IMG/VR virus record: IMGVR_UViG_3300025598_000020 | From: a virus | Reading direction: 5' to 3' (one strand) | DNA: 64,000 nucleotides | Shown here: positions 2,996 through 20,599 of the stretch, piece by piece | Numbering within the stretch: position 1 is the first letter of the stretch | How the letters are laid out: the number at the start of each line of letters is the position of its first letter | Made by a program: the position numbers and the translations under genes | Notes under the pieces: model-generated | Told to the model about the DNA's origin: nothing | The model's input: the letters and a program-made list of their open reading frames with translations, nothing else | Databases searched by the model: none

Positions 2996-4060
2996 TTATG
3001 TATTTGGATATTCCGTAATGGTAGTATTAATGGTGAATGGTCCAGAATTAGCCGTTTCGGTTGACATATCTTCCACACCAACATCAGTTCTTAAATCATC
3101 TGAACCAGTTTCTGATGACAAATCTTCAAATACATCACCGTAAACTGGAGAAACAACAATTTTAGCAAGTTCAATTGGTACAACTTTGTAGTTTAAAAAC
3201 TTTCTGGTTGCTTCTGATGTTTGGCCAATAATATTTTGATTTGAAACAAAATTGCCTGTCAGGTCAGAAAGAACCAAATTGTAGTTTTGATATGAAACTA
3301 CTTTACCAGTTGCTGTTGCAAATGAAGGTGATGTACCTTGATATGCAATTTCACCAATCTTATATTTTCCTGTGCCGACTTCATTCATTTCAAACAGAAC
3401 ATTATGTTCATCATCTATATTATTGTATATATTTGTGATGGATGTTTGAATTAAACCAACATTGTCATTAATGACACCAAAAATAAAACCTTTAACTGTG
3501 AAGTTTAAAGTCCAAATAACCATTCTGGTATCTGAATCTCTATCACCTTCATAAGTTACATCATATGTGGTGTTATTTAGTACAACAGGTACTTCTTTTA
3601 TGATTCCCATTTCTGGAATCATGTTAACTTTTATCGTATAATCTGGTGAAAAATATGGTAAAATATGTTCTATAATTTGATTGCCATCTTCAATATTACG
3701 AACATAAAGATAAAGACTAAAATCAAAGTTATATGGTACTGGTGTATATTGTGAGAGGTATTGTGAACCTGTATATGCAAAGTTCTTTATATTTGTTTGT
3801 TGTTTACGGCTTGCGTCATATGAAATACCGTTCATCTCATATGACATACGTGGCAAAGCCATTTGAATCTTTTTATCAAGGTTTGGATCACCTTGTAGAC
3901 GCATTACATACAATTCTTTTGTTGCATAATCCAATGGAACAATAAATCTTTCTTGTTCTGTTTCATCTGGATTATAACGAATCAACGTAATGTTATCAAA
4001 CAGATTGCCAAAAGCAACTGTTAGTTTACGAATCATTCTATTGTAAGTGGTATTAGACAT
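2996..4060 (-). CDS. gp15: Tail sheath stabiliser/terminator (T4 gp15-like) with C-terminal extension
   Basis: AFGNLFDNI, LPRMSYE, QIIEHILPYF motifs; synteny 13-14-15-16-17. Confidence 0.92.
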   Translation of the reverse strand: MSNTTYNRMIRKLTVAFGNLFDNITLIRYNPDETEQERFIVPLDYATKELYVMRLQGDPNLDKKIQMALPRMSYEMNGISYDASRKQQTNIKNFAYTGSQYLSQYTPVPYNFDFSLYLYVRNIEDGNQIIEHILPYFSPDYTIKVNMIPEMGIIKEVPVVLNNTTYDVTYEGDRDSDTRMVIWTLNFTVKGFIFGVINDNVGLIQTSITNIYNNIDDEHNVLFEMNEVGTGKYKIGEIAYQGTSPSFATATGKVVSYQNYNLVLSDLTGNFVSNQNIIGQTSEATRKFLNYKVVPIELAKIVVSPVYGDVFEDLSSETGSDDLRTDVGVEDMSTETANSGPFTINTTITEYPNT

Positions 4061-4941
4061 TATAAACCACCTATCGGATTAGTCTCAGATGTATTTAATA
4101 TCGCAGAAGCTGAACTACTAATTAAACTATTATCATATGGTTCTTTTACTGCTGGAACTTCTAGAGGATCGTATGTTGTTACAACATAACTTGCTCCACT
4201 TGTGTTACCAATAACTACTTGTCCGTCTGCAAACACACCTGAAATATTGGTTACTGCCATTTGTGATGCAGATGGAACCCAAGATTGAATTGTAGCCACA
4301 GCTGTTGCATTGGCGTAAGTATTATCAGGAGATTGAAATACCAATTCTTGTAAATTGTATGTTCCCGAACCAGTACCAGTATTCAAATGTATTGTGTAAG
4401 CCGAATCATATACAACAATGTCAATGTCCGGTATACCAGTAGAAATAACTTCTTGTGAGTATTTGAATTTCTCTAAATCCAATTCATAAAAATAAGGCAA
4501 TTTTCTACCCAATTGAAAAAAGTCTTTTGTTTGATTGGTGAATTTAATCTCATAAAGTTCACCTTGGCCATTCAAAATTGGAATATAGATTAAATCACCT
4601 TCACGTGGTCTTGTGAATGTATTTTGTGGTACTCTTTGACTGAAAGTTCTTTTAGAAACAATCACTGAAACTTGATTGCGAATTTCCAAACCAAACTTGG
4701 TAAACATTTCTCTGTCGCCATTATATTCTGTGGCATTAGAAAGATACATTTCCAACGGAAAAGCGGTATTAAATTTCTTAACCGGATCTTCACCATAAAG
4801 AAGGTCACGAGCTGCATCGTTATCATTAGGAAGATAATAAGCATTAAAACCCATAATTTTTATGGATTCTACAATTAAGTCTTCAATGATTTTTTGGTCT
4901 GGTCTAGACCCATAAAGATTAAAATATTGACTTGTTGCCAT
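4060..4941 (-). CDS. gp14: Neck protein (T4 gp14-like)
   Basis: ESIKIMG, KFGLEIRN, PREGDLIY, FFQLGR motifs. Confidence 0.92.
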   Translation of the reverse strand: MATSQYFNLYGSRPDQKIIEDLIVESIKIMGFNAYYLPNDNDAARDLLYGEDPVKKFNTAFPLEMYLSNATEYNGDREMFTKFGLEIRNQVSVIVSKRTFSQRVPQNTFTRPREGDLIYIPILNGQGELYEIKFTNQTKDFFQLGRKLPYFYELDLEKFKYSQEVISTGIPDIDIVVYDSAYTIHLNTGTGSGTYNLQELVFQSPDNTYANATAVATIQSWVPSASQMAVTNISGVFADGQVVIGNTSGASYVVTTYDPLEVPAVKEPYDNSLISSSASAILNTSETNPIGGL

Positions 4942-4942
4942 G

Positions 4943-5725
4943 TTAGTTCAAGAACCATTCTAGCGGACCGCCATAGTTTTCAATCATGTCTTTCTCTAAT
5001 CTGGCAATTTCTTCCATAGCTTCATCATAAGTTTCTTTGCCATTTAATGTGACACCACCAGGTAGTTGTAGTCCACCAAATTTTTTCATGTTCTCACCCC
5101 AAGTTCTCTTAATGAGTGCTGTGGCATATTCTTTTAACCAACGGTCATTCCATACATTTGGATACTCATTCGGATCAATTGCACCATAACATTCTGATAC
5201 AACAACTTGACCCACACCTACTTCGTAACCACTACCCCAAGCCCAATCAATATACAGTCTCTGCATATTACGTACAAAACGAATAGGAACTTCACCAGTG
5301 AACTGTAGTTCCAAAGAACGTAAGTGTTGTTGAGTTAATGTGTAATTGATGTAGGACGCAGAAGTAAAGTCATACAACTCATTTAGACGCAATTGGTATC
5401 TCAAGTCAAACATATTTATAGTTGCTTGAGAATCAGTCAAAGGAAAAATACGGGTGATACCAAGAATACTTACATTGTTACCGTTTGCATCTGTAGCTTG
5501 AGATGCATCCAGATATTGGTGAGCAATGTCATCTGCGGTAACATAGTGAATCCAGTAGAATTTTTGTGCACCATCAAAGTGGTAGTCTTGCCAGTATTGA
5601 ATAGCATCATCAATACGGTCGGATACTTGGTCTTCATCTACGTTGATATCAATGACAGGCGCACCCAGTCTACGTAAACAATAATTTGTAAAGTCTTGTC
5701 TATTTAAAATTGGTGCTGAAGCCAT
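4943..5725 (-). CDS. gp13: Neck protein (T4 gp13-like)
   Basis: LRRLGAPVIDINV, WLKEYATALIK, LPGGVTLNG. Confidence 0.95.
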   Translation of the reverse strand: MASAPILNRQDFTNYCLRRLGAPVIDINVDEDQVSDRIDDAIQYWQDYHFDGAQKFYWIHYVTADDIAHQYLDASQATDANGNNVSILGITRIFPLTDSQATINMFDLRYQLRLNELYDFTSASYINYTLTQQHLRSLELQFTGEVPIRFVRNMQRLYIDWAWGSGYEVGVGQVVVSECYGAIDPNEYPNVWNDRWLKEYATALIKRTWGENMKKFGGLQLPGGVTLNGKETYDEAMEEIARLEKDMIENYGGPLEWFLN

Positions 5726-5757: not shown

Positions 5758-7026
5758 TTAGATTTTTAGGGGACCAGGAAACCTCTCTCCTCCATCTTTT
5801 ACAGCAACCAACCACGCACTTGTGACACACACATTTAGACTTTTCAACCAATCATTTGGAAAGTGTGTTTCTCTACGATATTCTTGGAATCTAATAGATT
5901 TATTATCTATAAAACCAGCCAAATATGCATCTGTGTAATACAAGAAACTGTTTTCATTCCAATAACTTACATGAGTTGGGTCTTGAAAAGCACCACGACC
6001 ATCGGTACTCGGTACTTCAATAAATGCCCAACCACCATGTGCCAATACCCTATGTATCTCACCCATAATCTTAGTCTTGTCGTGCAAGTGTTCTAAGATA
6101 TGACTTGCATTTAATACACCAACTGAATTGTCTGGTAAAGGAATACCATTGTTTAAGTCACAAACATAATCAGCAGTATCTCTAAGGTCAACTGTTGTAT
6201 AACCTTCATATGGATTTAACCCACCACCAATGTCTACACACAATAAACCTTTATCTTTGGCATCTTTTTCTGCCAGAACTCTCGCATATTGTCTTTGTAA
6301 CTCTACAGTTTTGACTTGAATGGCTTCATTTCGTTCAAGGAAAGTATTATCTCCCGTGATTCGATATATGTATAAGACTTTTGGTACACGAACCATCTTT
6401 GTGTGTATGTAGGTTCTGATACACAATTCATGGTCATCACAGATAGAAAGTTCTGAATTGTGACCACCAATTTCTTCATATACAGTTTTACGCCAAGAAC
6501 GAACGTGGTCTGGTGCAAACCAAATGTATTGTAATGCTTGACTTGTTGGTTCAAAACTTTTCATTGCATGAAGTTCTTGACCTTTCCAGTTGAACATTTC
6601 AAATGTCCATCCGTTACCTTCATCATATGGTACAAACTCATTCTTCATGTGAAGAACTGCATTGTCACTATAAACAAAACCAACTGTATCGTCTTGGTAA
6701 GCTTTGTTCAATTCTTCTAAACAATCTGGTGTGATTAAGTCATCATGGTCCATTTCAACCAGAACATCGCCTGTGGCCAATGCAAATGCAACTCTCTTTA
6801 CTGCACCAACATTACTGTTTTTATCTTCTGTTCTAAAGATTTTAACTTGCCAGTCATCTTTTATAATGTCTGGAATGTTTTCGATAACACAATTGTTATT
6901 TAAGAATAATACCCATTCCCAGTTTTCATATGTTTGATTTCTAATAGAATCATAAAGTTCTAATAAAAACTTAATATTGTTTGGATTATGTTCGGGTGTT
7001 ATTAAACTAAACTTCAAATTTTTCAT
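5758..7026 (-). CDS. GT2-family glycosyltransferase fused to a class I SAM-dependent methyltransferase-like domain
   Basis: SLITP..SIRNQTYENWEW, DHDD (DxD), CDDHEL; C-terminal VDIGGG, SHILEHL, DPTHVSYWN. Start taken at MKNLK. Confidence 0.85.
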   Translation of the reverse strand: MKNLKFSLITPEHNPNNIKFLLELYDSIRNQTYENWEWVLFLNNNCVIENIPDIIKDDWQVKIFRTEDKNSNVGAVKRVAFALATGDVLVEMDHDDLITPDCLEELNKAYQDDTVGFVYSDNAVLHMKNEFVPYDEGNGWTFEMFNWKGQELHAMKSFEPTSQALQYIWFAPDHVRSWRKTVYEEIGGHNSELSICDDHELCIRTYIHTKMVRVPKVLYIYRITGDNTFLERNEAIQVKTVELQRQYARVLAEKDAKDKGLLCVDIGGGLNPYEGYTTVDLRDTADYVCDLNNGIPLPDNSVGVLNASHILEHLHDKTKIMGEIHRVLAHGGWAFIEVPSTDGRGAFQDPTHVSYWNENSFLYYTDAYLAGFIDNKSIRFQEYRRETHFPNDWLKSLNVCVTSAWLVAVKDGGERFPGPLKI

Positions 7027-7030
7027 AATA

Positions 7031-8704
7031 TTAATCAAAGAAGAACAAGTGTGTTAATCTACCAGTTTCATTATCTTGGCCAAAGTAATTGCCTGCCGAA
7101 TGAATGCTTTGTGCATCCATAATCACAAGTCTATTATATAAATTGCCTGCATCGGCAATAGTTTCAAACTTGGATGCATCATAGAAACCTCCTGCAAATG
7201 CACCTTCTATGTCATCATCACTCATGTGCATAGTTCCGTTTAACCTGGACCGATGCAGTCTTGTTCCTGAATCTACTGGTGCATTGGGTGTTAGATAAAT
7301 CATTGCCGCCCACTTTTGCAAGTCATGGTGGTAAACCTGTGGGTCTTCTGCCGTTACAATTTGAAAACAACCATTATGTCCGTGTTCTTCCCAATTGTTA
7401 ATCTTTTCACCAATAATAGATTCAAATGCTTCTTTTATGCCATCAAATCTAAATGGACCTGAGCGTTGTCCTTTATAATACTGAATATCTCTTTTGTATT
7501 CAGCTTGAAGTGCAATTTGTCTTACTTCATCTGGATTAGTATAAAAGTTGTCAACAACAAATAGTTTCTTTTTCATGTTCACATTTACATAAGATATTTT
7601 AGGTGGGTTCAATTTGTCTAACGCATAATTATGTAGGTCTTGTATTCTGGTGCCACCATCATGGTACATTGAACGGTCTATCATAACAACATATCTTGGA
7701 AATGCACAAGTTCTTTCCGGCTGAATCATGATTGATGTATACTTTAACATACTTTCATAATCACCCAACTCATTATATGTGTGTGCTAAACCCCACCAGT
7801 GGTCATTTCTTCCTGTGGCAAATCTGTCTGCATCAAGAAATGTTTGTATTGCTTCATCAACATCACCAATAAATTTCAAACATTCGGCCGAAAATATCTT
7901 GGCCATGTAACACATTTCATCTTCACCTTGTACATTTCTATGGAATACGTATTCGTTGAAATAGTAAATACAACGTCTGGCAAACTCTTTTCTTTGTGTT
8001 TCACCTAATGGAAATGAATGTTCTTGATATGCATCAAAGTAACTTTTACCAATGTACCAAAAATGATACCAATCGGTTAGTATAGAGTTTTCTTTAATCA
8101 TCTTTTCTTCTAAGATGAGTGCATCAGAAATAAATTTGGTTGGATTTGACCAACTCTGGCCTTCATTGAAACCAATTTGTCTGATTGTTAATGGTAAATC
8201 TACACGTTGAAAGTTTTCACCTGTGACGCCATCATCAAGATAGATTGTTTCGTGGCACGGATCATGGTTGAAACGCCATTTCAATTTGGCATTCCACATC
8301 CATGCACGATAATAAACACTTGAACCTGCTACTGCTGGTATATGAAATGATTGTATTGAAGTATCATCAAGTAAGGACCAATCAAAGTCATCATCGATTT
8401 CTAAGACTTCATCACAATCCATCTTAAGAATCCAATCACAACCGTGTTCAATATTTTGTGTATATTGAATTAAGTGGTCACGATTCCAACCAAAGCCAAC
8501 CCATCCTTCTTCTACATCGTAAAGAACACCTGGTATTTGTTTTTCTGTAAAGAAGTCTTTAACAATTTGGTCTGTACCGTCTGTTGAACCGTTGTTTTGT
8601 ATTACGAAATAATCAATATATTTGTAACATGATTCCAACATTCTTCTCATCACCGATGCTTCATTACGAAACATGGTGGTCATAACAATTTTCACCTTCT
8701 TCAT
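7031..8704 (-). CDS. GT2-like glycosyltransferase + TPR-like region + C-terminal 2OG-Fe(II) oxygenase-like (DUF6445-like) domain
   Basis: FRNEA..GSTDGT..MDCDE GT-A core; helical middle region; C-terminal VVDNFY..HHD..YLTPNAP..SGT..YNRLVI..H..R..LFFFD. Start taken at MKKVK. Confidence 0.8.
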   Translation of the reverse strand: MKKVKIVMTTMFRNEASVMRRMLESCYKYIDYFVIQNNGSTDGTDQIVKDFFTEKQIPGVLYDVEEGWVGFGWNRDHLIQYTQNIEHGCDWILKMDCDEVLEIDDDFDWSLLDDTSIQSFHIPAVAGSSVYYRAWMWNAKLKWRFNHDPCHETIYLDDGVTGENFQRVDLPLTIRQIGFNEGQSWSNPTKFISDALILEEKMIKENSILTDWYHFWYIGKSYFDAYQEHSFPLGETQRKEFARRCIYYFNEYVFHRNVQGEDEMCYMAKIFSAECLKFIGDVDEAIQTFLDADRFATGRNDHWWGLAHTYNELGDYESMLKYTSIMIQPERTCAFPRYVVMIDRSMYHDGGTRIQDLHNYALDKLNPPKISYVNVNMKKKLFVVDNFYTNPDEVRQIALQAEYKRDIQYYKGQRSGPFRFDGIKEAFESIIGEKINNWEEHGHNGCFQIVTAEDPQVYHHDLQKWAAMIYLTPNAPVDSGTRLHRSRLNGTMHMSDDDIEGAFAGGFYDASKFETIADAGNLYNRLVIMDAQSIHSAGNYFGQDNETGRLTHLFFFD

Positions 8705-8705
8705 T

Positions 8706-9284
8706 TTATCTCCACTTGGGCCCATCAAACCATGCGGCTATACTGTATCTTTTTCCTTTGGTTACTTTGCCTGCCTTGTGTCTTAACATTGAAGGAAAGA
8801 ATATAGCAGTTCCTTGTTCTCTGACATCTGGGTCAAGTGATTGAGTTGCTTCTGTGATAGTAAAATCTCCACCCTCATAATCAATATTTGGGTTAGATAA
8901 CTGAATGACACAGGATAATTTTCTGTGATAATCTGGATCATTATTCAACCAAAATACATCGTGGTGTTCTTTATATTCACCTTCATATGCTGCATCATAT
9001 TCAGCAAACTGAACAAACTCTAATTTGGAAATGTGAACGTTGAAGAAGTCTCTGTTGGCTTCAATAGCCATTTTCCACAAGTCATCAAACAACCAAGTGA
9101 AATTTGGGTCTTTGTCACTTAGAAATGTGACTCTACTTTTGCGAATAGAAGTATCTACTGCTGTACTGATACCATTAACGCCAACAACGGCATCTTGAGA
9201 TGGTAATTTCAATGCATCATTTATAAGTTTATAACAAGTATTAGCATCATAACGATGCTTAAAATAACACCACTCACCCTTCAT
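8706..9284 (-). CDS. 2OG-Fe(II) oxygenase, prolyl-4-hydroxylase/PKHD-like
   Basis: HHD..RKLS..YEGGDF..FFPS..H..GKRYSIAAW (HxD...H...R). Confidence 0.9.
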   Translation of the reverse strand: MKGEWCYFKHRYDANTCYKLINDALKLPSQDAVVGVNGISTAVDTSIRKSRVTFLSDKDPNFTWLFDDLWKMAIEANRDFFNVHISKLEFVQFAEYDAAYEGEYKEHHDVFWLNNDPDYHRKLSCVIQLSNPNIDYEGGDFTITEATQSLDPDVREQGTAIFFPSMLRHKAGKVTKGKRYSIAAWFDGPKWR

Positions 9285-9291
9285 AACAACC

Positions 9292-10596
9292 TCACAATTT
9301 TGAATTCAAATAATCTATTTGTGCCTTTTGCTCTTTCAATGCTTCAATCAAAAGTGGTACAACTCTTTCATACATAACGGTCAAATAATTTTCACCAGAA
9401 ATGCTGTTACCATATTTATCTGTGTCAAAGGGAGCCTTTTCAATGACTTCTGGTAACACATCGTTAATTTCTTGTGCAATCAAACCAACTTCACGTTCGT
9501 TTCCTTGATAACCAAACGACCTAGCCAAATCATTTTTAGTGTAGTAAACACCATTCAATGTCATAACTTTTTCAAGTGCTTGATTGATTTTGTTTATAAT
9601 ATCTTTTAGTCTACCATCAGAATAGTATGCAGTGATATTACCTGTTGCTTGAATTGTACCTGTTGGTCCAGCAGATGTATTAACACCTAAAGCTGAAACT
9701 TGTGTTGGTGCCGGACCAGTTGGGCCTGTTGATCCTTGTGGTCCCTGAGCACCAGTTGGGCCTGGACTGCCAGTGCTACCTGTTGGTCCAGTGGCTCCAG
9801 TTGGACCTGTAGGTCCTGGTGAACCTGTGGGTCCAGTTGGTCCAGGTGCTCCTTGATAACCAGATGGTCCAGTACCACCTTGTGGTCCCTGAGCACCAGG
9901 TGAACCTGTTGTGCCGGTTGAACCTTGTGGTCCCTGAGCACCAGATGTGCCAGCAGGTCCTTGTGTGCCTTGAAATCCAGAAGGTCCAGTAGAACCTTGT
10001 GGTCCTTGTGGTCCTGGATTACCTTGTGCACCGGAAGAACCTTGTGGTCCTTGAGCACCGGGAGAACCAGCTGGACCTTGTGTACCTTGGAAACCAGAAG
10101 GTCCAGTGCTACCCGTAGTTCCTTGTGCACCTGGTGTTCCAGTTGTGCCCGTACTTCCTTGTGGTCCTTGAGCTCCAGTAGAACCTTGAGGTCCTTGTGT
10201 GCCTTGAAATCCAGAAGGTCCTGTACTACCAGTAGAACCTTGAACACCGGCAGGTCCTTGTGCACCGGTTGGACCCTGAGGTCCTTGTGCACCAGACGCA
10301 CCAGTAGGTCCTTGAGTACCTTGAAAACCTGCTGGTCCTGTACTACCAGTAGAACCTTGAACACCCACAGGTCCTTGTGTTCCTGCCGGACCTTGCGGAC
10401 CCTGAGCACCAATAGTGCCAGCTGCACCTTGAGCACCTTGAACTCCTTGTGGTCCTTGTGCACCAACAGTGCCTTGAGGTCCTTGTGGTCCTAAAATGTT
10501 CGTTGTAGAACCAACCCAAACACCATTTGCTGCAACGACTGATGTAGTACCAACAGTCAATCCATTTTTAACTACAAAATTATTTGCTGTTGCCAT
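9292..10596 (-). CDS. Collagen-like fibre protein C with C-terminal peptidase S74 intramolecular chaperone
   Basis: About 87 Gly-X-Y triplets from Gly36; YYSDGRLKD cleavage motif, GLIAQE, C-terminal coiled coil. Confidence 0.92.
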
Positions 10597-11908
10597 TTAC
10601 TTTTTCCATTAATTTTGCAATTGTTTGTTGTTGTTCTTTAATTGCTTCTACAAGAACTGGTATCAATTTGTGATAATGAACTGTTAGATAGTTTTGACCA
10701 GATTTACTTTTTCCATTCTCATCTACGTCAAAAGGAGCTGGTACAACAATTTCAGGTATATGTGTTTGAATTTGTTGAGCTATAACACCAACATGTCTTG
10801 TTAAATCTCTTTTGTAACCAAATTTTTCTGCATGTCTATTTTGACTAAAATAAATTCCACTCAAAGACATAACTTTTTCCAATGCACCATCAATATTGCC
10901 AATAATATCTTTCAGTCTTCTATCTGAATAATAAGCAATAATGTTACCTGATGCTTGAATCGAACCTGTTGGTCCTGCTGGTGCAGAACCTACACCAAGA
11001 GCGGATATGTTTGGTGTAGATGTTGTTGTTACACTTCCAGTTGCACCGGTTGGTCCAGTACTACCAGTGGGTCCTTGTGCGCCTGATGGTCCTGTAGGAC
11101 CAGTAGAACCTTGTACACCTGAAGGACCAGGTGATCCAGTAGGTCCAGTGGAACCTTGTGCACCACTACCACCTTGTGGTCCTTGAAATCCTGATGGACC
11201 TGTACCTCCGGTTGAGCCGGTTGAACCTTGTACACCGGCTGGTCCTGGACTACCAGTTGACCCTGTTGTTCCTGTTACACCAGTTGTTCCTTGTGGTCCT
11301 TGGAAACCAGAAGGTCCTGTGCCGCCTGTGGCACCAGTTGATCCTTGAACACCAGCAGGTCCTGTACCTCCAGTTGCGCCTGTTGTACCTGTTGTGCCAG
11401 TTGGTCCTTGTGGACCTTGAAAGCCAGAAGGTCCGGTACTACCTGCACTACCTTGAACACCTTGAAAACCAGCAGGTCCGGTACTTCCCGTAACACCTGT
11501 TGTTCCTGTTGCACCTGTTGGTCCTTGTGGACCTTGGAAACCAGATGGACCTGTTGGTCCTTGAGTACCTTGAAATCCAGAAACACCTGTTGTTCCAGTG
11601 CTACCTGTAGTACCTTGAACACCTGAAGCGCCAGTTGGCCCCTGAGGACCTTGGAAACCAGATGGACCTGTTGGTCCTTGAGTACCTTGAGCACCAGGTG
11701 AACCTTGTGCACCTGAACTTCCTGGTGTTCCATTTGTTCCTTGCACACCGGCCGCGCCTTGAACTCCTTGTGGTCCTTGTGCACCTGGACTTCCTGTTGG
11801 TCCAGTATAAGAAGATGCTGCTGAAATCCAGACACCATTGGCTGCAATAACTGGAGTTGTACCTACAGTTAGTCCATTCTTAGCGACAAAATTATTTGCT
11901 GTTGCCAT
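10580..11908 (-). CDS. Collagen-like fibre protein B with S74 chaperone
   Basis: About 86 Gly-X-Y triplets from Gly36; [15 protein letters not shown]. Confidence 0.92.
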
Positions 11909-11909
11909 C

Positions 11910-13220
11910 TTACTTTAGTCTCTCTTCCAGAGATTCTATTTCTCTTTGTTGTTCTTTGATTGTCTCTATGATTAAAGGAATTAATAATTCATATTGTACT
12001 GTTAGGTAGTATTCTCCAGATTTGCTGCCGTCTTTTCCATCATTGTCAAATGGTGCACGTTTAATTACTTCAGGTAAAACTTTATGTACCTCTTGTGCAA
12101 TCACACCAACATAATTTTTATCATCGGTGTACCCATATTTTTTTGCAAGTTCATTATTTTTATAAATGATACCACTTAATGTGTATAATTTTTCAGCAGC
12201 ATTATTGATTGTTTCAATGTTATCTTTTAATCTTATGTCTGAGAAATATGCCGTGATGTTATTTGTTGCAACAATTTGGCCTGTTGTTGTTACTGCAGCA
12301 GTACCAACACCCAAATATGTGGCTGTTGTGCCTAATGTTCCGCTAGGGCCAGTTGCACCTTGATATCCTGATGGTCCTGTGCCGCCAGCTGGACCTTGTG
12401 CGCCTGGTGAACCTGTTGGTCCTCCACCACCCTGAGCACCAGGTGAACCTGTTGGTCCTGTAGGTCCTTGTGCACCTGTTGGTCCAGGAGAGCCAGTAGA
12501 ACCTTGTCTGCCAGCTGGTCCGGGAGAACCAGTTGGTCCTTGAGTGCCTTGATAACCGGATGGTCCAGTAGGACCTTGAACACCTTGGAAACCAGATGGT
12601 CCAGGAGAACCAGTAGAACCTTGTTGACCTGCTGGTCCAGGAGTTCCAGTTGGTCCAGGTGGTCCTTGATAACCTGATGGTCCAGTGGAACCTTGAACAC
12701 CTTGAACACCAGAAGGTCCAGTGGAACCTGTTGGTCCTTGAAAGCCTGATGGACCTTGTGCGCCTGCTGGTCCCGGAGCACCTTGTCTGCCAGCCGAACC
12801 TTGAGTGCCTTGAGCACCTTGAACACCTGCGGGACCAGTACTACCTGTTGGACCTTGAGCACCTGGTGTTCCTGTAGGTCCTTGAGCACCTTGAGCACCT
12901 TGGAAACCAGATGGTCCAGTAGAACCTTGAGCACCTTGTACGCCAGAAGGTCCAGGTGAACCTGTTGGTCCTTGAGCACCTGATGTACCTGTGGAACCTT
13001 GAGCACCAGGAGAACCTTGACTTCCTTGTGGACCGTTAGACCCTAATGTACCTTGTACACCTTGAGGACCCTGAGCTCCTTGTGCACCAGAAGTACCAGT
13101 AAATCCTTGTGGCCCAGTAATATTAGTACCAGGTCCAGTCCATTGTCCGGAAGAATTGATGACATTTGTAGTATTTACGGTTAAACCGTTCTTAACTACA
13201 AAATTAATTTGAGTTGCCAT
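11910..13220 (-). CDS. Collagen-like fibre protein A with S74 chaperone
   Basis: About 88 Gly-X-Y triplets from Gly36; [15 protein letters not shown]. Confidence 0.92.
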
Positions 13221-18934: not shown

Positions 18935-20599
18935 TTATCCTATGTAAGCCACAGACCAATTGTCGTTGCTATCAAATATGATTGTACCAGAACTTGCAAT
19001 TAATTGTAGTGTATCGCCTACCGCCAGTTTCACAATGTTGGCGCCACCGGCATGGTTCATTGAAGTGTTTGGACCAAATTCAACCATAATACAAGTTGTT
19101 GTCCCACCACCAATTGCAGCAGTTTTTCTAACTAAGGCTTGAGCAATACCACTTGAACTATTATTATATGTTCTAATCACTAAATTAACTTGATATAAAC
19201 CTGCAACAGGCGCTGTAAATATACCAGTAGTTCCGTTCAGGTAACTTCCTTGATTATATTCAATATTCCAATTGCTATTCGTTAATGTGTTTGAGGAAGC
19301 AACTGAGCCACCATTACCTCTTACACAAAATGCTGGACGATTTGGTGCATAACCAGCAGCAATACCGTTTGTTGTTGTATTACCTGCAAGTGTTAAGTCG
19401 CCCGCATCACTCAAAGAAAATGATGTTATTAGGTATGCACTATTAACAACTTGTAATTCACCAACAGAACTTAAACGGATTGTTTTGTTTCCGTTTGTTG
19501 CGCCAGCAGATGTATTTGTAAATTTTAATACATCTGCATAACCTGTACCACCAATTGTATTGGCTGCAGTAATAGACAATCCTGAACCTGTTGTTGTGAC
19601 AGGTTGATATGTTATACTTACATTTCCTGTTATACTTCCACCAGTGTTTGCAAGTGCGTTGTTTGCTTTGGAGAAAGCACTATTAGCATATGAACCAGCT
19701 GAGTTTGCGGCAGTAAATGCTGAGTTTGCATAAGAACTGGCCGCATTAATAGAGTTATTTTGTGTAAGTTCTATGCCTGCTAAATTCACCGTATTGGATG
19801 CTGCGGTATTAGCTGCCGTAAATGCTGAATTGGCATAGGCACCAGCAGAATTAGATGCTGTGAAAGCTGAATTGGCATAAGATCCAGCACTATTAGCAGT
19901 TGAAAATGCACTATTAGCATAAGAACCAGCTGCATTGATGGAACTGTTTTGTGTTAATTCAATACCCACCAAATTAACAGTATTGGATGCTGATGTATTG
20001 GCTGCATTAAATGCCGCATTGGCTTGTGCAAAGATACTATTAGAATATAGTAATAATTCTACACCGCTGTCATAGATTGTATTTGAACTAACACTATTGA
20101 ATGTAGAAGTTGTGACATTACTTTGAGCACCAGTTGGTCCAAATTCTGCCCATATTGGATATGCCGTGTTGCCAAAGTTTTCATACATTACACCTGTATT
20201 AGAATTCAACCACAAATCGTTTGAATTTGGATTACTTGGTGCAGTATTTTGATAATATGTTTGTGTTTTTGCATTGGCTGCTGAGTAGACAATACTGCCA
20301 TCTAATGTAATTGTCTTACTAGTAGTATTAGCAAAAACACCAATACCATTTGCGCCTTTGAAACTTAGAGTGTCTGTGTTAGATGTTGCAAGTATTAGTG
20401 AACCAGATACGTTCATTGTTGAGAACGAATTGGTAAACTGACCGCTAGAGATATATGTTATTGTACCTGTAGCATTTTTATAATACAACTTTCCATCGTA
20501 GTAGTTAAGTGCCAACTCACCATAATTTAGTGATGCTGGTACGTTACCTGATACGCCAGATTTTCTTAGTTGAATTGTTGTATTTGCAATTGTTGCCAT
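18935..20599 (-). CDS. Tail fibre with T-even distal-fibre-like N-terminus and C-terminal C1q-like domain
   Basis: IQLRKS..GELALN N-terminus; C-terminal PAF..TGIFTAPVAGLYQV..VKLAVGDT. Confidence 0.75.
   Translation of the reverse strand: MATIANTTIQLRKSGVSGNVPASLNYGELALNYYDGKLYYKNATGTITYISSGQFTNSFSTMNVSGSLILATSNTDTLSFKGANGIGVFANTTSKTITLDGSIVYSAANAKTQTYYQNTAPSNPNSNDLWLNSNTGVMYENFGNTAYPIWAEFGPTGAQSNVTTSTFNSVSSNTIYDSGVELLLYSNSIFAQANAAFNAANTSASNTVNLVGIELTQNSSINAAGSYANSAFSTANSAGSYANSAFTASNSAGAYANSAFTAANTAASNTVNLAGIELTQNNSINAASSYANSAFTAANSAGSYANSAFSKANNALANTGGSITGNVSITYQPVTTTGSGLSITAANTIGGTGYADVLKFTNTSAGATNGNKTIRLSSVGELQVVNSAYLITSFSLSDAGDLTLAGNTTTNGIAAGYAPNRPAFCVRGNGGSVASSNTLTNSNWNIEYNQGSYLNGTTGIFTAPVAGLYQVNLVIRTYNNSSSGIAQALVRKTAAIGGGTTTCIMVEFGPNTSMNHAGGANIVKLAVGDTLQLIASSGTIIFDSNDNWSVAYIG

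Follow-up and report, generated by a model that had tools for sequence, protein, structure and literature searches.

Three tandem collagen-S74 genes of an uncultured T4-like phage probably encode the strands of one heterotrimeric fibre

The DNA stretch analysed here (64,000 nucleotides (nt) of IMG/VR virus record IMGVR_UViG_3300025598_000020, hereafter the window) is part of the genome of an uncultured T4-like myovirus, a phage known only from metagenomes. Its minus strand carries three tandem genes, each coding a collagen-like chain that ends in a Peptidase_S74 (S74) chaperone domain. Most probably each of them supplies one strand (A, B or C) of a single heterotrimeric collagen-like fibre. 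An initial annotation of the window had proposed such an ABC heterotrimer from the matched lengths and repeats of the chains, and the lengths found in related phages, their match in triplet steps and a charge rule between the chains, all read from sequence, argue for it. It is likely that this phage ABC collagen has its composition and register set by three co-evolved, self-removing S74 domains and that it is spread through uncultured T4-like aquatic phages, with rods of ~20 to ~200 triplets. The neck is a possible place for the fibre.

Organization of the three genes and their products

The genes and the parts of their products, in amino acids (aa), are the following.

11910..13220, minus strand: collagen chain 1 with alpha-class S74 tail, 436 aa
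13116-13220, minus strand: chain 1 head, aa 1-35
12324-13115, minus strand: chain 1 Gly-X-Y tract, aa 36-299, 88 triplets
12243-12323, minus strand: chain 1 linker, aa 300-326
11913-12242, minus strand: chain 1 S74 chaperone, beginning at Ser327, with Lys332
11913-11978, minus strand: chain 1 C-terminal helix, aa 415-436
10580..11908, minus strand: collagen chain 2 with beta-class S74 tail, 442 aa
11804-11908, minus strand: chain 2 head, aa 1-35
11030-11803, minus strand: chain 2 Gly-X-Y tract, aa 36-293, 86 triplets
10928-11029, minus strand: chain 2 linker, aa 294-327
10583-10927, minus strand: chain 2 S74 chaperone, beginning at Ser328
9292..10596, minus strand: collagen chain 3 with gamma-class S74 tail, 434 aa
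10492-10596, minus strand: chain 3 head, aa 1-35
9709-10491, minus strand: chain 3 Gly-X-Y tract, aa 36-296, 87 triplets
9622-9708, minus strand: chain 3 linker, aa 297-325
9295-9621, minus strand: chain 3 S74 chaperone, beginning at Ser326

Gene 1 thus codes the alpha chain, gene 2 the beta chain and gene 3 the gamma chain. Chain 2 starts 1 nt after the stop of chain 1, and the beginning of chain 3 shares 17 nt with the end of chain 2. Each product has a four-part build: a head of 35 aa, a Gly-X-Y tract, a linker of 27-34 aa and the Peptidase_S74 domain. The homologous head and the start of Gly-X-Y at Gly36, both reported in the initial annotation, are seen in all three open reading frames, and the interval 9709-13115 in which it placed the heterotrimer runs from the base where the gene 3 tract ends to the base where the gene 1 tract begins. 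The tracts run without a break for 88, 86 and 87 triplets in chains 1, 2 and 3, exact counts that agree with the earlier ones, as does the rod length of ~75 nm (264 aa x 0.286 nm). A "knob" domain had also been presumed. There is none, only 27, 34 and 29 residues separating the tract end from the S74 cleavage serine.

All three chains match Pfam Collagen (PF01391; E-values 1e-36 to 1e-41) and Peptidase_S74 (PF13884; E-values 2e-9 to 7e-12, with scores of 45.9, 38.1 and 43.6 bits for a cutoff of 22). The cleavage motif S-D-x-R-L-K is found at Ser327, Ser328 and Ser326 and also in all relatives described below; the T5 pb1 cleavage site is Ser1264 with Lys1269, five residues on (PMC4690869). The gamma-tail profile also matches the solved chaperone chains of MYRF and S16 gp37. 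A monomer model of the alpha tail by AlphaFold2, poor overall with a predicted local distance difference test score of 55, has a helix over the last 26 residues. Asp, Glu, Lys and His are absent from the tracts, and Arg occurs just twice in 783 residues. Proline occupies the X position in 29, 26 and 33 triplets and the Y position in 11, 5 and 7 triplets of chains 1, 2 and 3.

The paralogous heads are 54-69% identical and the S74 domains 49-53% identical in aa and 62-64% in nt. Tract identity is 63-65% in nt, no closer than that of the S74 DNA, and falls to 20-28% at X and Y (XY) positions compared in register. Judged from these identities, the three paralogs are old. Period was kept as sequence diverged, as had been described: among lags 1-30 the strongest self-similarity of every chain is at 13 triplets, with XY identities of 0.47, 0.53 and 0.54 (99th percentile of triplet shuffles 0.34-0.38; p<2e-4). 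The GPS-G(F/Y)Q motif that had been given as the marker of this 13-triplet super-repeat is strict only in gene 3, which has 5 copies exactly 13 triplets apart. It is partly periodic in gene 2 (spacings 9, 4, 8, 5, 13, 13) and irregular in gene 1 (18, 8, 9, 4, 21).

Related phages have one chain of each tail class

Relatives were collected from scans of viral and metagenome contigs with the S74 tail, which yielded 199 loci (designated L with a number). Exactly three tandem genes of the head-collagen-S74 build are found in 20 distinct phages, the window included. In the tail tree the alpha clade has support of 99/94 and the gamma clade of 100/98, beta being the remainder. One alpha, one beta and one gamma tail per phage was found first in 14 genomes and later in 20 of 20 distinct triads. 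Other phages commonly have a single collagen-S74 gene with an unclassed tail. A near-identity DNA search in isolated phages gave no match, and the S74 tail has relatives in isolated phages only below 47% identity. By baseplate gp6 the nearest isolates are pelagimyophages (infecting Pelagibacter) and the Methylophilales phage Melnitz, at 38%. No published description of this triad family was found; a survey of pelagimyophages names only "triple collagen repeats" among fibre domains (PMC7029224).

Heads and tails are linked in two ways. Type I, found in the window and 9 others, pairs H1 with alpha, HY with beta and H3 with gamma; type II pairs H1 with beta, H3 with alpha and HY with gamma. The tail order is alpha, beta, gamma in the window and L002 (type I) and beta, alpha, gamma, with the heads re-paired, in L001, L120 and L021 (type II). 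Both arrangements recur even among the closest relatives. It looks as if two junction blocks, each composed of a tail plus the next head, were swapped by recombination in the collagen repeats. The two types can be read as cyclic shifts and were considered as a sign of fixed chain order; this was rejected because a junction-block swap yields a cyclic shift automatically.

Two further loci depart from this organization. In L100 (1515-5386; also L095) the tandem collagen-S74 genes number only two (649 and 639 aa), and the setting is like that of the triad loci, with a large fibre gene upstream and a glycosyltransferase gene downstream; the Gly-X-Y pattern of the second gene is very broken. This locus is possibly a 2:1 design or an intermediate state. 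Since single-gene loci are widespread and one two-gene locus type exists, the triad is a derived state of the common single-gene fibre. In L116 (2-6758) two collagen genes in tandem, coding 1156 and 1080 aa with 226 and 221 triplets and without the S74 motif, adjoin two shorter collagen-S74 genes (55 and 59 triplets). It is another length-matched set, of a different family.

Lengths of the three chains change together

Chain length was measured from the conserved head Trp to the S74 cleavage Ser, and its statistics cover the 17 complete distinct triads. Five of them read as follows (residues).

Window: alpha 300, beta 301, gamma 299
L120: alpha 455, beta 456, gamma 456
L001: alpha 646, beta 649, gamma 647
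L002: alpha 116, beta 119, gamma 117
L003: alpha 504, beta 504, gamma 502

The length spans 116-711 residues between phages, with correlations between chains of r 0.976-0.998; covariation of tract lengths in related phages was the check proposed in the initial annotation. The median range within a triad is 4 aa, compared to a standard deviation of 162 aa between phages, and none of 100,000 shuffles matched lengths as closely (permutation p<1e-5). Changes between closely related phages involve all three chains by nearly the same amount: +347/+348/+349 for alpha/beta/gamma from the window to L001, +156/+155/+158 from the window to L120, +133/+131/+128 from L002 to L021 and -127/-126/-127 from L004 to L009. 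In the window triplet count and linker offset each other, with 88 triplets followed by 27 residues, 86 by 34 and 87 by 29.

The main rival to an ABC fibre is that the genes code for three separate homotrimeric fibres, AAA, BBB and CCC, whose S74 classes diverged against mixing and whose equal lengths were selected by side-by-side work on the virion. All solved S74 chaperones and all characterised prokaryotic and phage collagens are homotrimeric (PMC4690869, PMC8968730), which had been remarked for collagens in the initial annotation in line with a 2022 review (PMC8968730). The single-copy collagen-S74 genes of other phages also speak for this explanation, and the keeping of three distinct tail classes is predicted by both models. 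Functional selection does not easily explain, however, an agreement within 1-5 residues over a range of 116-711. The mature tips and heads are conserved and alike between chains, and three redundant fibres are not expected in every relative. Together with the register and charge data below, this makes three homotrimers an unlikely explanation.

Register of the chains in relatives with interrupted tracts

In related triads one chain frequently shows regular breaks of Gly-X-Y. Interruptions were counted by triplet phase, two residues being taken as one step short by one and one or four residues as a one-residue bulge. With lengths counted in triplet steps the three chains agree more closely in 12 triads and less closely in 1 (sign test p 0.003). 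The chains of L008, of 537/531/539 residues, become 539/540/539, and alpha and gamma of L047 pass from 583/607 to 581/581. A match to about one step, as read from these sequences, fits better with what in-register chains of one helix require; for separate fibres of similar physical length, any match would be expected to be loose and to show in residues. The homotrimer explanation provides no account of this difference between 12 triads and 1.

The super-period behaves likewise. It is 39 aa in every chain of the window, L120 and L001, 36/36/35 aa in L004, L005, L008 and L123, and 105/106/106 aa in L009. The period of 35 aa corresponds to 11 triplets plus 2 residues, and three homotrimers do not account for an interrupted chain having it beside partners of 36 aa. 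When the L008 chains are stacked at 12 steps per row they comprise 167/167/168 steps, the period is 12 steps in all three, and the repeat of every chain holds fixed columns along the same stretch of the rod.

Interruption sequences (SSIA, S[AS]V[AT], AQ) are the same across the chains of a phage and different between phages (L009, L003, L004 and L019); SSIA is found in L009 alpha and gamma, and AQ in all three L004 chains. Such common motifs point to some exchange of repeat units, or to co-evolution, between the tracts of one genome. They also bear on a further explanation, that equal length is a by-product of concerted evolution by gene conversion or unequal crossing-over of tandem repeats, with no structural coupling. 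Motifs and super-period are indeed common within a phage and different between phages, and the repeated swaps of junction blocks between close relatives point to recombination within the tracts. Nevertheless, tracts within one phage are as diverged as tails, and tract interruptions differ in number and place. Recent gene conversion does not explain equal lengths in tracts that differ in this way; patchy conversion gives neither equality to 1-3 residues nor equality in triplet steps, and the charge complementarity between chains is left unexplained. Concerted evolution without coupling is thus hardly credible, the least probable of the explanations considered.

Charge pairing in the predicted chaperone coiled coil

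At its C-terminal end the solved T5 pb1 chaperone forms a central coiled coil of three helices, regarded as the starting point of folding, and its Arg1386 bridges to Glu1391 of the neighbouring monomer (i to i+5) beside the stated core residues (PMC4690869). In the last helix of the tails studied here the core positions are 3, 7, 10, 14, 17 and 21, hence 13 is a g position and 18 is e' (i+5). Positions 13 and 18 were equated with Arg1386 and Glu1391 from the heptad pattern and the distance to the C-terminus, not from an alignment.

Among 99 distinct single-copy S74 tails the pair 13/18 is acidic-basic in 26 and basic-acidic in 25, at least one residue being neutral in the others; like charges never occur. 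At the level of sequence this rule is the signature of a homotrimer with g to e' pairs between its helices, and the heptad pattern with i/i+5 charge pairing in the 99 relatives fits a parallel coiled coil. The alpha tails of the triads break this rule, which speaks, at sequence level, against a homotrimer of one gene product such as the solved S74 examples. Their position 13 is always acidic (E in 19, D in 1) and position 18 is E in 10 of 20, so that an alpha trimer would set E13 against E18 in half of the phages, a like-charged pair with no counterpart in the single-copy tails. The homotrimer explanation is burdened by this clash.

Complementarity is found between classes. Beta 13 and alpha 18 have opposite charges in 9 cases and like charges in 0, in both orientations and in about eight lineages. 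The alpha 13/gamma 18 pair is acid-Lys in 17 of 20 triads, and gamma 13 (Gln) is opposite beta 18 (Leu or Met). The ring beta -> alpha -> gamma -> beta accumulates 26 opposite and 0 like pairs, compared to 5 like pairs in the reverse ring. It appears that an old self-complementary pair was split among the three paralogs, as expected for the passage from a homotrimer to an obligate ABC trimer.

These data also bear on promiscuous or partial mixing (A2B, AB2, ABC and homotrimers) without fixed order, in which the lengths would match so that any mixture can form. Tails that are 49-53% identical may cross-associate, and L100 with its two genes suggests a 2:1 or homotrimeric design there. Free mixing does not lead to expect exactly one tail of each class in all 20 triads, however, and the charges fit one directed ring, the reverse ring and alpha-alpha contacts being disfavoured. 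It is a very improbable explanation.

Prediction of the complex of alpha, beta and gamma tails with their own alignments gave 0.34, a control with another sequence in place of chain 2 gave 0.44, and the result weighs neither way. The opposite-minus-like charge score was tried as a family-wise statistic and rejected: columns of skewed composition score high, and 80% of shuffles consequently attain the observed 9. The Pearson r was taken in its place. The strongest cross-class pair by r, alpha column 72 with gamma column 84 (r -0.81), received little weight as only two lineages are involved.

Several observations speak against one ABC fibre. The length rule is broken in one chain in 3 of the 17 complete triads and in one contig variant: L016 gamma is without the ~160-aa insert present in alpha and beta, L123 alpha is longer by 36 residues, L047 beta shorter by 17, and L011 gamma shorter by 108, seven near-identical contigs being of full length. 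Outliers of this kind are compatible with homotrimers. Coincidence of interruptions between chains of the relatives was found in few cases, with no general pattern (an example, in alpha and gamma of L004, lies 55 residues ahead of the Ser); in L009 the chains have 0, 5 and 3, and the places differ. Bulges of one chain must consequently be accommodated in a mixed helix, while differing interruptions would cost nothing to homotrimers. Exchange of tract segments within a genome may contribute to equal lengths. Most of the diagnostic charges are neutral in the window (beta 13 is T, gamma 18 is N), where only the alpha E13/E18 clash is telling. The beta 13/alpha 18 covariation (r -0.75, second strongest of 471 cross-class pairs; single-pair permutation p 2e-4) was framed after part of the data had been seen and comes from about eight independent lineages, with a family-wise p for r of ~0.04. 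The shuffle tests take no account of shared descent.

The insert of L016 (5856-13027) is a non-collagen segment positioned mid-rod, at different heights in alpha and beta, and gamma of this phage is about 135-150 residues shorter than its partners.

Proposed assembly of the fibre

A pathway can be proposed for the ABC fibre. The products of genes lying 1 nt apart or overlapping would probably be made in equal amounts. The alpha, beta and gamma S74 domains would join via their last helices into one asymmetric three-helix coiled coil of fixed ring order, in which beta turns its g face to the e face of alpha, alpha its own to gamma's and gamma its own to beta's. This coiled coil would set both the 1:1:1 composition and the register. 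The Gly-X-Y tracts would then zip from the C-terminal to the N-terminal end into a triple helix of ~75 nm, and the three heads of 35 aa may unite at the opposite end as an attachment piece. Each S74 domain is expected to cut itself off at the Ser of S-D-x-R-L-K, leaving mature chains of ~325 residues with a short mixed tip. The S74 domains would thus play the role of the C-propeptide of animal procollagen.

Genomic setting

The genes that follow the triad on the minus strand are the following.

8706..9284, minus strand: 2OG-Fe(II) oxygenase (PF13640), directly downstream of the triad
7031-8728, minus strand: glycosyltransferase gene (GT2 + DUF6445)
5758-7038, minus strand: glycosyltransferase gene (GT2 + methyltransferase)
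4943-5725, minus strand: gp13-like adaptor
4060-4941, minus strand: gp14 neck protein
2996-4060, minus strand: gp15

The minus-strand order is thus triad, oxygenase, two glycosyltransferase genes, gp13-like, gp14 and gp15. The T4 whisker gene wac precedes gene 13, and we take the triad to occupy the equivalent place. This position suggests a neck whisker or collar fibre, a reasonable guess by analogy for which a baseplate fibre is the alternative. By PHROGs the window also codes for several fibres and for wedge proteins of the baseplate (gp6, gp7 and gp8). The oxygenase is kept at the same place in 17 of 19 distinct related triad loci and both glycosyltransferase genes follow the triad in relatives too. 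The oxygenase is missing downstream of the triad in L002 and L004, where the glycosyltransferases remain. From its locus context the oxygenase is a candidate collagen-modifying enzyme.

Two other elements of the window were recorded. A complete transfer-messenger RNA (tmRNA) gene lies at 58423-58814 on the minus strand (Rfam beta_tmRNA, 134 bits for a gathering score of 84), and its tag peptide according to ARAGORN is ANDEKFALAA; this betaproteobacterial-type tmRNA may hint at the host group. A protein of 554 aa from the fibre cluster (18935-20599, minus strand) has a weak C1q match at its C-terminal end (PF00386, E-value 2e-4, 22 bits, just under the cutoff of 23.7).

Comparison with known systems

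Heterotrimeric collagen is regarded as an animal invention and reviews call prokaryotic collagens homotrimers. If the ABC fibre is real, the control of chain choice and register has a separate origin here, in a different domain, and the triad clearly exemplifies gene triplication followed by division of one homotrimer interface into three complementary ones. Making heterotrimeric collagen of defined register in bacteria is a recognised problem that has not been solved, and three small, orthogonal, self-cutting domains, one on each chain, would be a ready-made tool for it. The widely differing rod lengths with locked partners would provide a natural series for the study of helix folding.

The triad resembles the fibres with S74 chaperones, such as K1F endosialidase, the T5 pb1 L-shaped tail fibre and the GA-1 neck appendage, in the cleavage site composed of Ser and Lys(+5) and in a predicted C-terminal helix with heptad pattern whose g to e' (i+5) pair is spaced as Arg1386-Glu1391 of T5 pb1 (PMC4690869). 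By analogy its S74 domains are expected to have the same role, nucleating trimer folding and then cutting themselves off. The solved examples are homotrimers of one gene product, whereas the triad has three old classes with complementarity only between classes. Its chaperone follows the collagen helix after 27-34 aa, in contrast to solved S74 fibres where it comes after a beta-helix or a receptor-binding domain.

Bacterial and phage collagen-like proteins include streptococcal Scl1 and Scl2, Bacillus BclA, SPP1 gp12 and PRD1 P5. They are similar to the triad in having Gly-X-Y tracts flanked by a trimerising non-collagen domain and a role as surface fibres, but none is known as a length-locked set of three genes.

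A mixed three-chain collagen helix is so far described only for animal collagens. C1q, with chains A, B and C coded by three neighbouring genes, and the heterotrimeric animal collagens are like the triad in their three distinct chains from separate genes, in a short N-terminal piece and in length-matched Gly-X-Y tracts. In the animal heterotrimers a C-terminal non-collagen domain sets chain choice and register, and that of procollagen is removed after folding (PMC5353611, PMC8968730). There is no sequence relation: the selector in the phage would be S74 instead of gC1q, NC1 or the fibrillar C-propeptide. With Peptidase_S74 as its only C-terminal domain, the triad would work like the C1q-type and type I, IV and IX collagens without being a member of them. 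The procollagen domain is cut by a separate protease, whereas the S74 domain would be removed by self-cleavage, and the phage tract differs from animal collagens in being almost without charged residues and in its few Y-position prolines. C1q and procollagen with its C-propeptide are the closest working analogues.

The closest viral precedent, by analogy, is the tail heterotrimer of virophage DSLV2, in which the products of three tandem paralogous fibre genes co-purify as a heterotrimer; that triad is conserved in relatives and related to fibres of aquatic phages (PMC12724248). The DSLV2 fibre, likened here by description, has a gp37-tip-like fold of ~16 nm without collagen tract or S74. Collagen repeats, the S74 chaperone and phage fibres are all known parts; what would be new is that three co-evolved S74 domains build a 1:1:1 collagen.

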